Positions 1,946 through 29,719 of a stretch of DNA of 33,499 nucleotides are shown here, piece after piece. A program made the position numbers and the translations under genes. The notes under the pieces were generated by a model. The model saw nothing but the letters and a program-made list of their open reading frames with translations. It made no database searches and was not told the origin of the DNA. This stretch comes from a virus (taxonomy: Duplodnaviria; Caudoviricetes). Each line of letters begins with the position of its first letter. The stretch's first letter is position 1. The DNA is taken from positions 1 through 33,499 of the IMG/VR virus record IMGVR_UViG_3300011334_000408; one strand, 5' to 3'.

Positions 1946-2118
1946 CACCTAAACAAAGAATATTAATAGTAATGAAATATTATTATTTGCGAGGTTATAA
2001 TTCGGAGCGAGTTAATAAAGTTTATAAAAATATATTAAACAAATGTAAATATTGCGGACAATCAAACGGAGTTCATAAATTAAGTTGCTCAAGTAAAAAA
2101 ATTATTTTGCATATTTAA
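1942..2118 (+). CDS. small putative Zn-binding protein (58 aa, not in ORF track)
   Basis: MTPKQRIL...CKYCGQSNGVHKLSC...; ATGA overlap with the upstream gene. Confidence 0.6.
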   Translation: MTPKQRILIVMKYYYLRGYNSERVNKVYKNILNKCKYCGQSNGVHKLSCSSKKIILHI

Positions 2119-2136
2119 AAAATAGTATTATATTTG
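2106..2136 (+). promoter_or_regulatory. Bacteroidota housekeeping-sigma promoter
   Basis: TTTG (2106-2109), 19-nt spacer, TATATTTG (2129-2136); matches the TTTG/TAnnTTTG consensus. Confidence 0.8.
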
Positions 2137-2145
2137 CATTTATAA

Positions 2146-2231
2146 AAAGTTCGGCTAGGAACTTTCACAAAATTATAACGCCTCTTTTAATGCTTAATTC
2201 TAGCCGATTAAGATTTTTAAAAGAGGTTTTT
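2146..2231 (+). ncRNA. structured leader 1 (two hairpins with complementary loops, then T-tract)
   Basis: AAAGTTC/GAACTTT stem with loop GGCTAG; CCTCTTTTAA/TTAAAAGAGG stem with inner CTTAAT/ATTAAG and loop TCTAGCCG. Confidence 0.6.
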
Positions 2232-2241
2232 ATTTTAAATT

Positions 2242-2679
2242 ATGTCAAAAGATTTATTTATGTTGATGCGAGAGCAAGAAATTCAAACATCAAACTTTTT
2301 ACCAAACAAAAAAGAAATTCAATTCGGAGCAAAAAAATTCATTACAGAACTTTTAGATGATGGTAATGTAAACAAATTTGAATTATTAGCACAAGCTAAA
2401 AGACTTCAAGAAGCACTTGACGTAGTTAACACCGAATTATTAAAAGTAATCCCTCAAGAAAACTTTGAGGAGTTCGGATTAAAAGGAACGTTTAGAAGTG
2501 GTGGCGATACTATTAACTATACAGAAGATGAAATCTATTGCGAGTTAAAGCGTTGTTTAGATGAGCGTACTGATTTGCTTAAATTAGCACAAAAGCAAGA
2601 AGTAGCTGATTTGTATGGTAACATAGTTCCTAAAGTTTCAACAACACCGAGAAAGTCAAGTTTGGCTATATCATTTTAA
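2242..2679 (+). CDS. hypothetical protein (first gene of recombination operon)
   Basis: 145-aa ORF downstream of the promoter and leader. Confidence 0.75.
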   Translation: MSKDLFMLMREQEIQTSNFLPNKKEIQFGAKKFITELLDDGNVNKFELLAQAKRLQEALDVVNTELLKVIPQENFEEFGLKGTFRSGGDTINYTEDEIYCELKRCLDERTDLLKLAQKQEVADLYGNIVPKVSTTPRKSSLAISF

Positions 2680-2722
2680 ATTACTATATTTACAAATCTT
2701 TAATAATTAAATATCTTATCTT

Positions 2723-3217
2723 ATGAAACAAATTGCAACCGCTTTATTAAAAGCACAATCAGAAATGAGCAATCCGAAAAAAGGCTCAACAAATCCATTC
2801 TTTAAATCAAAATACGCTGATTTAAACTCAATTCGAGAAGCAGTTATTCCAATTCTTAACGCAAATGATATAGTAATTTTACAACCTATTGTACATTTAG
2901 ATAACAAAAACTTTGTGCAAACTATTTTATTACATTCAAGCGGTGAAAAACTTGAAAGTTTAACTGAAATTATTTACAATAAAGTTAATGATGCACAAGC
3001 ACAAGGGAGCGGAATAAGCTACGCAAGACGTTATTCTTTACAATCATTTGTTTGTGTTGGTGCAGACGATGACGACGGACAAAAAGCAGTACAACCAAAA
3101 CCAAATGCAACTACAGAAATTTTAAAGAAAGCTAAATATGGTGGCTTTTCATTGGAGCAAATTAAAACTAAATACACAACTACAAAACAACAGGAACAAG
3201 AATTTATTAATCTTTAA
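2723..3217 (+). CDS. erf: ERF-family ssDNA annealing protein
   Basis: NPFFKSKYADL and AQAQGSGISYARRYSL motifs. Confidence 0.85.
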   Translation: MKQIATALLKAQSEMSNPKKGSTNPFFKSKYADLNSIREAVIPILNANDIVILQPIVHLDNKNFVQTILLHSSGEKLESLTEIIYNKVNDAQAQGSGISYARRYSLQSFVCVGADDDDGQKAVQPKPNATTEILKKAKYGGFSLEQIKTKYTTTKQQEQEFINL

Positions 3218-3228
3218 TTTATATATTT

Positions 3229-3522
3229 ATGGGAGTTAAAACTTCATTTTACGGAAGCATTGATTTTAGCAAATTGTTAGAACAAGCAAAAACAGGAAAC
3301 AAAGCATTTACTAAAAATGAAAATGGTAAAATTTATTTAAACGTTAGAGTTTGGGTAAATGATGAGTTAGATAAATATGGTAATGTAGCATCGTTTCAAT
3401 CTAATTTCAAAGGAGCAACAAAAGAAGATAGATTTTACTTTGGTAACTTAAAAGAAAGTGAGCAGATAGTTGAAGAAGTAACCGCTGAAGATATACCTGA
3501 TACAGATTTGCTTCCTTTTTAA
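3229..3522 (+). CDS. putative single-stranded DNA-binding protein
   Basis: Follows ERF; beta-rich with an acidic tail ending DLLPF. Confidence 0.6.
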   Translation: MGVKTSFYGSIDFSKLLEQAKTGNKAFTKNENGKIYLNVRVWVNDELDKYGNVASFQSNFKGATKEDRFYFGNLKESEQIVEEVTAEDIPDTDLLPF

Positions 3523-3564
3523 AGAGCAAATGCTAAATTTATTAATCGAAACATTTGATTTAAA

Positions 3565-4005
3565 ATGAAAATTGAAATTACAACGTCAATCGTTAACGGA
3601 CTATTCAAACGAAATAGAGACCTTGTTTTAAACGCCATAAAATCGTTTAATGATAAAGATGTTGTAATTACTTTTTCAAAGCCTAAAAAGTCACGTTCTA
3701 ACAATCAAAACAGATACTATTGGGGTTTAGTTCTTCCTTTAATACAAAATGGTTTATTAGAAGTTACAGGAGAATTAAGAAGCGTTGATAACATTCACTA
3801 CAAAATACTTTTGCCTTTATTTGCTCCGACAAATGAAATAGTAAATAAAGATACTGGAGAATGCATTACAGAACGTTTAACAAGTTCAGATTTAACAACT
3901 ACTCAATTTTGCGAGTATATTTTAGAAATACAAAAATGGTCAGCAGAATTTTTAGGAATAGATATTCCATCACCTAACGAAGATAATATGTTAAATTTTG
4001 AATGA
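3565..4005 (+). CDS. NinB/Orf-like recombination accessory protein
   Basis: RSNNQNRYYWG and SSDLTTTQFCEYILEI motifs. Confidence 0.6.
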   Translation: MKIEITTSIVNGLFKRNRDLVLNAIKSFNDKDVVITFSKPKKSRSNNQNRYYWGLVLPLIQNGLLEVTGELRSVDNIHYKILLPLFAPTNEIVNKDTGECITERLTSSDLTTTQFCEYILEIQKWSAEFLGIDIPSPNEDNMLNFE

Positions 4006-4039
4006 TTTGTTTTTTATATTGAAATAATTATTATATTTG
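4006..4039 (+). promoter_or_regulatory. Bacteroidota housekeeping-sigma promoter
   Basis: TATATTTG at 4032-4039 and TTTG at 4006-4009 (22-nt spacer, slightly long). Confidence 0.65.
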
Positions 4040-4042
4040 TAC

Positions 4043-4134
4043 TTGTTGGAGTGGTAACCGACAATAAAATATAAAAATATTTAATCCATAATCTGGAGGC
4101 GTTTACCACAATAGCCAAAGGATTATGGATTTTT
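4043..4134 (+). ncRNA. structured leader 2 (same architecture as leader 1)
   Basis: TTGTTGG/CCGACAA stem with loop AGTGGTAA; AATCCATAATC/GATTATGGATT stem whose loop contains TTACCAC; T-tract follows. Confidence 0.6.
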
Positions 4135-4161
4135 CATATTTATAACTTAATTTAATTTAAA

Positions 4162-7507: not shown

Positions 7508-7683
7508 TGGAAAGCGTTGAATCAATGATAGCTATTGTACAAGTTTACATAAATATTCACAAAAATATACAAGTGAACGTAAAAATAGTTAACTTTGTCG
7601 AAATAAGAAAACTAAAAGAAGCTTATAATATAGCTTACAATTGGTTGAAAGAATATGAATTGAAACTTGAAAGAAATATTTAA
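7507..7683 (+). CDS. hypothetical protein (58 aa)
   Basis: MESVESMIAIVQVY...; overlaps the sigma gene start. Confidence 0.55.
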   Translation: MESVESMIAIVQVYINIHKNIQVNVKIVNFVEIRKLKEAYNIAYNWLKEYELKLERNI

Positions 7684-8101
7684 ACAACATAAACGCTGGA
7701 TTAATATTGTCAAACAATTAGGCATAGATGATTATGCAGAAGATATTGTACAAGAAGCGTACCTTAAATGTTTAGAGAAGAAATCAATTAACGAAGCATA
7801 TTTTTATTTAACTTTGCGTAGTTTGGCATTTGATTTGCATCGTAAACAAAAGAAAATAATAAAAGTACCAATAGAAGAAATAAATATATCTATTGAAATA
7901 GATAAAGAGAATGAAGTATTTGAAATAGTAAACCGATTACATTGGTTCGATAAACAAGTTTTTTATTTATATTATGATAATAAACTTTCGATGAGAAAAA
8001 TAGCAAAAGAAACAGGAATATCACTATCAACTATTTTCAATACGATTTCAAAGTGTAACGATAAAATTTTAAAAGAATGGGAAGAAAAAAGAAAGCAATA
8101 G
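7667..8101 (+). CDS. ECF-type sigma-70 factor (candidate late sigma)
   Basis: Region 2 AEDIVQEAYLK and region 4 HTH LSMRKIAKETGISLSTI; TTG start. Confidence 0.8.
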   Translation: MKEIFKQHKRWINIVKQLGIDDYAEDIVQEAYLKCLEKKSINEAYFYLTLRSLAFDLHRKQKKIIKVPIEEINISIEIDKENEVFEIVNRLHWFDKQVFYLYYDNKLSMRKIAKETGISLSTIFNTISKCNDKILKEWEEKRKQ

Positions 8102-11406: not shown

Positions 11407-11945
11407 GCAATTTAGAACATACACAAAAGACTCTTGAGAAGTTTAGGGATTACGTTATTCAGCAATCGAGAAGCAATTTAACGAAAGGCAATAAGAATTC
11501 TACTAAAAATCTTTATAACGAAATTAAAGGAAACGTAAAAGTATCAAAGAATAGTTTTGAGTTGGAGTTTGAAATGCCAATGTACGGACAATTTCAAGAC
11601 AAAGGAGTAAAAGGTTCTAATCCATCAGCAGTTAAAAACGGAGTTCAAAAAGCACCTGATAGTAAGTTTAGTTTTAAAAGTAAAATGATACCTACAAAAG
11701 TGCTTGACAAATGGATGATAAGAAAAGGAATAGCACCAAGAAACAAAAAAGGAAAATTTATAAGTCGAGAGGGTATGAAATTCGCAATTGCTAAAAGTAT
11801 AGCATCGCAAGGAATAAGACCGAGTTTATTTTTTACCAAACCATTTGAAGCTGGATATAAAAAATATATTGATGATGATTTAATAAATCAATTTGCTTTA
11901 GACGTTGAAGATTTAATGAAATTTAGTTTAAAAGATATAAAATAA
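11400..11945 (+). CDS. putative neck/tail completion protein
   Basis: Basic protein with YGQFQDKG and GIRPSLFFTKPF motifs typical of virion morphogenesis proteins. Confidence 0.5.
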   Translation: MLSNLEHTQKTLEKFRDYVIQQSRSNLTKGNKNSTKNLYNEIKGNVKVSKNSFELEFEMPMYGQFQDKGVKGSNPSAVKNGVQKAPDSKFSFKSKMIPTKVLDKWMIRKGIAPRNKKGKFISREGMKFAIAKSIASQGIRPSLFFTKPFEAGYKKYIDDDLINQFALDVEDLMKFSLKDIK

Positions 11946-26779: not shown

Positions 26780-26908
26780 TAACGTTCCCGTGCTTGGCGA
26801 GGTTCAAGGAAAGTAAATCCAGATGCTTTGAGTCAAGACTGAAATTAACAAACACAAACAGAATTTTAAATTAATAACTAAACCTTGAATCTTGCCAAAC
26901 ACGTGTTA
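26780..26908 (+). repeat. attC-like hairpin E1 (129 bp)
   Basis: TAAC-gttcc-CGTGCTTGGCGAGGTTCAAGG...CCTTGAATCTTGCCAAACACG-t-GTTA. Confidence 0.85.
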
Positions 26909-26980
26909 TAAGTAGTTGCGGTTAATTAGTAGGATTTTAAATTGAAACAATAAACAAAAAATAATTAAAACAAAAAAGCG

Positions 26981-27435: not shown

Positions 27436-27506
27436 TAACGTTTTGGTGCTTGACGATGTGGCGGTCTGGAAATAGTACGTTCCGCCATATTGCCAAACAC
27501 TTGTTA
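27436..27506 (+). repeat. attC-like hairpin E2 (71 bp)
   Basis: TAAC-gttttg-GTGCTTGACGATGTGGCGG...CCGCCATATTGCCAAACAC-tt-GTTA. Confidence 0.85.
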
Positions 27507-29558: not shown

Positions 29559-29687
29559 TAACATTCCCGTGCTTGGCGAGGTTCAAGGAAAGTAAATCCC
29601 GATGCTTCGAGTCAAGACCAAAATTAACAAATACAAACAGATTTTTAAATTAATAACTAAACCTTGAATCTTGCCAAACACGTGTTA
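29559..29687 (+). repeat. attC-like hairpin E5 (129 bp), near copy of E1
   Basis: Seven substitutions relative to E1 by hand alignment, none in the paired stem. Confidence 0.9.
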
Positions 29688-29719
29688 TAGCTTGTGGCGG
29701 ATTTTTAAAAACGAAAATT

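Follow-up and report, generated by a model that had tools for sequence, protein, structure and literature searches.

The lambda pR'–6S RNA–tR' region and the antisense attenuators (pT181, P4 CI) resemble the leader described in the present study in having a constitutive promoter and a short leader, and in placing a terminator ahead of the opening gene of a phage operon. The lambda region depends on Q acting at promoter DNA, and we know of no loop kiss in its 6S leader; the antisense attenuators employ a second RNA. The closest precedent is the guanidine-IV riboswitch (GGAM-1/mepA motif), in which, according to the available sections of PMC7736828 and PMC11611296, a kiss forms between the loops of a 5' hairpin and of the terminator hairpin, as is the case here. 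The rigid kiss is proposed to stretch the linker so that the outer terminator pairs cannot form (PMC7736828, in part), and growth of the terminator stem, which shortens the linker, to hinder the kiss (PMC11611296, in part). The 'tug-of-war' riboswitches (bioRxiv 2026) also antiterminate by steric competition, no bases being taken from the terminator stem, as proposed for our leader; in the available part of PMC13307975 their aptamer lies immediately upstream of the terminator, whereas our leader has no aptamer and its upstream hairpin, set off by 14 nt, pairs with the loop of the terminator. The HK022 put RNA is, like our leader, a phage-encoded, promoter-proximal, two-stem nascent RNA involved in early gene transcription, although the available text of PMC9378689 does not describe it as a loop–loop kiss or as carrying its own terminator.

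We analysed a leader of approximately 95 nt (leader 1) upstream of the DNA-recombination genes of a phage; the window is the whole virus record of 33.5 kb (29% G+C). The phage leaders to which it belongs differ from guanidine-IV riboswitches, which have highly conserved ligand-pocket nucleotides, sugE/mepA transporter genes downstream and a known ligand, and reside mostly in Firmicutes chromosomes. The phage family has no such conserved nucleotides (40 loop cores in 46 leaders), precedes replication, recombination, endonuclease and methyltransferase genes, and is found in phages with no ligand known. With neither the conserved pocket nor the gene context, leader 1 is on sequence grounds not a guanidine-IV member, the sequence-level comparison being the Rfam scan. 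That search, which the original prediction had proposed, was run and returned no family: Rfam 15 gave 0 matches in the window at the gathering threshold, and the sole overlap at a relaxed threshold, AaHKsRNA82 (23 bits against 51 required, E 1.7), was not credible. We found no description of this leader in the literature, in which the catalogues PMC10690425 and PMC5737381 were covered in part; the available parts of these two and of PMC8040213 make no mention of the element, and a short-motif search of part of the PMC10690425 supplements found nothing. It is possible that one of the two catalogues holds an unnamed candidate model for the family. Judged by covariation, leader 1 is a real RNA element of a widespread phage-leader family, which is apparently uncatalogued. 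Kissing-loop attenuation is known, and the phage family represents a further variant of it with a putative function. In the sources available, kissing-loop antitermination is otherwise described for guanidine-IV; here the architecture recurs, with dozens of loop sequences, before the replication and recombination operons of Bacteroidota-type phages.

Architecture and gene context of leader 1

All named genes of the window lie on the + strand (46 ORFs scanned), and leader 1 occupies the gap between a DUF3310 gene (ending at 1945) and a 145-aa gene (starting at 2242). The operon behind it runs in the order unknown gene, ERF, unknown gene, NinB. The parts of the locus are as follows.

2106..2136, + strand: Bacteroidota housekeeping promoter, with TTTG (2106-2109), a 19-nt spacer and the TATATTTG box (2129-2136)
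2146..2165, + strand: hairpin 1, 7-bp stem and 6-nt loop GGCUAG (2153-2158), from fold prediction and covariation
2166..2179, + strand: A/U-rich unpaired linker of 14 nt (family median 15 nt)
2180..2227, + strand: hairpin 2, terminator-like, 6-nt loop CUAGCC (2200-2205), from fold prediction and covariation
2153-2158 with 2200-2205, + strand: loop–loop (kissing) helix of 6 Watson–Crick pairs, from covariation
2227..2236, + strand: U-tract TTTTTATTTT of the predicted intrinsic terminator
2242..2679, + strand: first gene behind the leader, 145 aa, without a Pfam or PHROG family
2723..3217, + strand: ERF-family ssDNA annealing protein (PF04404, E 6.5e-26; phrog_2324)
3229..4005, + strand: 97-aa phage protein with no assigned function, then a NinB/Orf-like recombination mediator (3565-4005)

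The 145-aa protein shares approximately 56% identity with a hypothetical protein found in cultured Flavobacterium phages (26 records), its GenBank-phage matches being Flavobacterium phages only, and the best phage match of the ERF protein is Flavobacterium phage 11b (62%); the host is thus likely to be a flavobacterium.

Hairpin 1 begins 10 nt past the TATATTTG box, which also stands upstream of related leaders. This is the spacing given by the original prediction; the promoter that it called consensus is of the Bacteroidota −33/−7 type and not the sigma-70 −35/−10 type. The box is placed at −12 to −5 in Bacteroidota promoters (PMC9723704, in part), and transcription is therefore predicted to start at approximately 2141. 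Hairpin 2 consists of an 11-bp basal stem (2180-2190/2217-2227), a 2×4 internal loop and a 7-bp upper stem (2193-2199/2206-2212). Its CCUC/GAGG G–C base is followed by TTTTTATTTT at 2227-2236, so that the terminator-like tract previously noted behind it is present and the layout is that of an intrinsic terminator. A generic terminator scan, which demands a loop of 3–8 nt, did not call hairpin 2. The start ATG lies 15 nt past the last G–C pair. We ruled out GAGG (2223-2226) as a Shine–Dalgarno site because of this 15-nt distance to the ATG and because Bacteroidetes do not use such sites (PMC6847099, in part).

Folding of 2140-2240 gave the two hairpins at −23.8 kcal/mol (z −3.57), and 0 of 200 shuffles were equally stable. 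The exact 8-nt complementarity on which the original prediction was built is correct: TCGGCTAG (2151-2158) is the reverse complement of CTAGCCGA (2200-2207), and neither 8-mer recurs elsewhere on the window's + strand. Its placement in the loops holds for 6 nt (GGCUAG/CUAGCC), the other two being stem bases. Among 2000 dinucleotide shuffles, 30 gave an MFE fold in which two loops had 6 or more complementary bases; the match in the single sequence is thus suggestive, being moderately unlikely by chance and not decisive, and the case for a kissing helix therefore rests on covariation.

Covariation in close relatives

We collected relatives with a hairpin-2 scaffold pattern blind to loop sequence, plus added loci. 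This gave 23 distinct leaders with a promoter box upstream, and 22 were aligned after one unstructured leader (L375) was dropped. Scored against the kissing structure, 99.4% of 682 cells were paired, compared with 33–59% in slid controls. All six pairs of the loop–loop helix were intact in 22/22 relatives and two of them had changed on both sides, in four loop versions (GGCUAG/CUAGCC, GGUCAG/CUGACC, GGCAAG/CUUGCC and GGAUAG/CUAUCC) that amount to approximately three independent events, the 22 leaders being related. Two-sided changes were also found in 4/7 pairs of hairpin 1 and in two basal and three upper pairs of hairpin 2, both stems of which were paired in 100% of cells, although its basal-stem columns had been chosen by the search pattern. 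Thus 11 pairs changed on both sides across all four helices. G–U swaps in the stems maintained pairing on the + strand, and RNAalifold recovered both hairpins unaided. The original prediction had called for covariation analysis and named its absence as refutation; no such absence was seen, and the kissing-loop reading is supported.

The two extra stem pairs of the 8-nt match behaved differently from the loop pairs, their cross-pairing being broken in 7/22 and 2/22 relatives. An extended 10-bp helix was rejected as the conserved form, since its outer pairs were broken in 7, 2 and 3 of 22; it may form transiently. One further locus (L331:576-712, − strand) combined the hairpin 2 scaffold with a GGUCAG hairpin 1 and lacked a TAnnTTTG box within the 70 nt inspected; this leader may work on read-through transcription.

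A wider family of phage leaders

A pattern scan for the promoter, GGYYAG and CTRRCC, with the inner bases left free, yielded 111 distinct matches from 120 loci. Both hexamers lay in hairpin loops in 50/111, and the inner bases matched in 50/50 of these, compared with 15/61 of the remaining, unstructured matches. The 50 structured leaders carried GGUCAG (45) or GGCUAG (5), with GGCCAG and GGUUAG absent (0), so the loop would seem to be constrained beyond complementarity, or by restriction-site avoidance. The GGUCAG loop sat on unrelated stems in 45/50 structured leaders; the loops were not hypervariable.

A second, loop-blind scan (promoter, 65–95 nt, GGNTTTTT) covered 6/64 parts of the viral collection and gave 120 loci. 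Its 108 distinct matches contained 58 two-hairpin leaders, in 46 of which the tip of the terminator formed a duplex of 6–10 bp with a stretch inside the first 32 nt, whereas the same criterion was reached by 4.8% of cross-paired leaders and 5.8% of shuffled tips. The 46 leaders held 40 different loop cores. On refolding, a hairpin surrounded the 5' partner in 44, and one member (L189) is probably spurious; 39/46 folded better on the + strand. Extrapolation from approximately 1500 pattern holders at 46/108 would put the family at approximately 600 stored viral stretches. Although not selected for, a U-tract was present in 47/50 family leaders (5 or more T among the 9 nt past the last G–C pair), with a median T count of 7 compared with 4 upstream of the hairpin. 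An ATG followed 13–28 nt past the last G–C pair in the 45 leaders where one was found (median hairpin-to-ATG distance ~18 nt). Linker and stem length were negatively correlated (rho −0.61), but predicted stems consume linker and the pattern selected total length.

The possibility that the match arose by chance, or acts in the DNA as an inverted repeat (operator half-sites), with no RNA tertiary pairing, is highly improbable. It could appeal to the 1.5% of single-sequence shuffles that reproduce the match and to the bases flanking the duplex, which are A–C more often than G–U on the + strand (17 compared with 6). The restriction of the match to cases with both parts in hairpin loops (50/50 against 15/61), the 40 different cores and the strand-specific G–U pairs in the stems argue against it.

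A named PHROG was assigned to 21/41 downstream ORFs of the loop-blind set. They comprised replication initiators and loaders, primases, HNH and GIY-YIG endonucleases, ParB-like proteins, methyltransferases and ERF, together with one nucleotidyltransferase-like and one phosphofructokinase-like protein; almost all belong to DNA replication, recombination or modification, and none of the 21 was a head, tail or lysis gene. The link to recombination genes proposed for leader 1 is also seen in relatives: in L309 the same scaffold immediately precedes an ERF gene, and in L395 a RecT-like gene.

Two side observations concern the loops and the range of the family. Of the 38 distinct 5' partner cores, 25 end in AG or AC (relatedness not corrected), a bias that may reflect a conserved tertiary contact where the kissing helix ends on one side. 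More G+C-rich members (L152, L192 and L265, with GGGCAG/CUGCCC), two of which precede genes for DnaD-like loaders, suggest that the family may reach beyond A+T-rich Flavobacterium phages.

A second leader, cultured phages and bacterial genomes

The window itself holds another leader.

4032..4140, + strand: second leader of the same design and unrelated sequence, in which loop AGUGGUAA pairs with UUACCAC

It precedes the replication initiator and primase/helicase genes. Matched loop changes were seen in relatives of its scaffold, namely AGUGGAGC (L016), AGUGGAAC (mumin9-1, 12701) and AGUGAGAC (L014).

Among cultured phages, an architecture search found two leaders in mumin9-1 (at 11666 and 12701) and one in 11b (at 33621), which makes the element directly testable. 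These members were not recovered by a covariance model built from the 22 close leaders, and blastn of leader 1 against 50,697 GenBank phages gave no match. Nonlabens phage P12024L (L430) had 0 leaders in the scan, though it shares head and terminase genes with the window. In bacteria, none of the 35 matches to the GGYYAG pattern in a GTDB-wide scan was structured, and the loop-blind pattern gave no genuine case in 301 genomes of one phylum (that of Bacteroidales record G001), a sample that is not proof of absence from bacteria. Its 15 distinct matches included three two-hairpin structures and one nominal 7-nt match with the partner in a stem. Among the sequencing runs listed as containing the leader, none was an RNA run.

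Proposed antitermination and alternative roles

The U-tract was kept without selection in 47/50 leaders, so hairpin 2 is likely to be a terminator between the promoter and the first gene, and the recombination operon would then likely be expressible only through read-through of it. With moderate confidence, we propose that leader 1 acts in cis and that pairing of loop 1 with the terminator tip serves as a co-transcriptional antiterminator gating the operon. The promoter box, both hairpins, the six-pair loop–loop helix, the U-tract and the place ahead of DNA-handling genes are established by sequence comparison, and the gate would use them as follows. Host polymerase would start near 2141 and hairpin 1 would fold first, its loop catching 2200-2205 as these bases emerge. 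In the kissed state the 14-nt linker would be nearly too short for the last basal G–C pairs to close, and kissed transcripts would be read through; unkissed transcripts would stop near 2236, giving an RNA of approximately 95 nt. This linker-strain logic matches that proposed for the guanidine-IV riboswitch, which is among our grounds for favouring antitermination.

Folding of growing prefixes is consistent with such a gate. For RNA ending at 2207-2222 the most stable state had loop 1 paired to the tip region, and the terminator won only from 2226. RNA polymerase covers approximately 14 nt of nascent RNA, so the competing state should keep its advantage during passage of the enzyme over the U-tract. 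Against the gate, the terminator fold (−23.8) is more stable at equilibrium than a forced long-range helix (−14.0), a comparison in which ViennaRNA cannot score the kiss itself. The geometry also weakens the case: in a rough model with generic dimensions the linker came out close to the edge of its reach, and 5/9 parameter sets left 1–4 basal pairs open while 4/9 allowed the kiss together with the full terminator; the linker reach fell below the straight stacked length in only 12/44 family members.

Coexistence of the kiss and the full hairpin in those 4/9 settings would suit a post-transcriptional role, in which a compact 5' structure would give either mRNA protection or control of first-gene translation, with weak, constitutive termination. 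Hairpin 1 at the predicted 5' end and the tight hairpin-to-ATG distance (median ~18 nt) would also fit, as would the tuning of initiation in F. johnsoniae by structure within −20 to +20 (PMC6847099, in part). We nevertheless consider this role unlikely, as leader 1 has no conserved alternative fold over the start codon and the conserved U-tract would be unnecessary.

The best candidates for tipping the balance of an antiterminator gate are the speed or pausing of polymerase and a protein that reads shape; a factor reading sequence is unlikely because of the 40 loop cores. Unrelated first genes behind the same scaffold fit a cis element, and autoregulation by the first gene was rejected on the same ground. 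The only protein shared by the window, mumin9-1 and 11b is a methyltransferase (E 1e-3), so the comparison yielded no trigger, which counts against the gate. This lack of a shared phage factor would agree with a put-like element, in which the two-hairpin RNA binds host RNA polymerase and confers long-range resistance to downstream terminators, and the two stems just behind an early phage promoter recall HK022 putL (PMC9378689, in part). Such an element is distinctly unlikely here: in the available text of PMC9378689 the put stems abut, with a triplex, a G–A pair and critical conserved bases, and bind the beta' zinc domain, whereas the present stems are separated by a 14-nt linker, joined loop to loop and very variable in sequence, the second being terminator-like.

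The original prediction had left attenuator, antiterminator and small RNA side by side, and the evidence leans towards a cis gate. Under the small-RNA alternative, which we hold to be rather unlikely, the terminated ~95-nt RNA would act in trans, for example if its free loops paired with nascent leaders, either those of its own phage (feedback) or those of a superinfecting one (exclusion), with a specificity coded in the loops, much like P4 CI RNA or Gifsy-1 IsrK. A consensus promoter and a terminator do delimit a discrete RNA, and loop-coded specificity would suit the 40 cores, the different loops on leaders within one phage and the two leaders of the window, between which cross-pairing is only 2 nt. 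Yet the 8-nt partners have no further exact site in the window, the loops are not hypervariable (GGUCAG persists across unrelated stems in 45/50), none of the 46 scanned ORFs was identified as an integrase or repressor, and the ATG lies close behind the terminator. As regards an antisense attenuator of the pT181 type, a search for minus-strand TAnnTTTG boxes within 2000-3000 found no conserved antisense promoter over hairpin 2; the only boxes were at 2047 and at 2175, the latter missing hairpin 2 and absent from several relatives, though a counter-transcript might start from another promoter type. Bolder schemes are improbable too: in a phage-wide circuit made of RNA alone, terminated leaders might decoy nascent cognate loops, the kiss counting genome copies or co-infecting kin and shutting recombination and replication genes, with the loop as the address; or dozens of sequence-unrelated leaders might be flipped at once, as a phage riboswitch class, by a metabolite linked to infection or by a host or phage factor that reads shape.

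If the antiterminator gate is correct, the leader would switch phage DNA-handling genes on and off in a manner not yet catalogued, and such gates would possibly be a common way for Bacteroidota-type phages to time genes through host polymerase. The family would also offer a natural set of orthogonal loop pairs for terminator study or engineering.

Other features of the window

A small sigma-70 region 2/4-like protein is encoded at 7667-8101, shortly upstream of the terminase genes, and is a candidate late-gene activator. Further downstream, a 149-nt direct repeat (26780-26928 and 29559-29707, 91% identical, with partial copies at 27487, 27427 and 27708) starts with TAAC and ends near GTTA. It flanks small genes and two DNA methyltransferases, and we take it to resemble attC-like gene-cassette borders.
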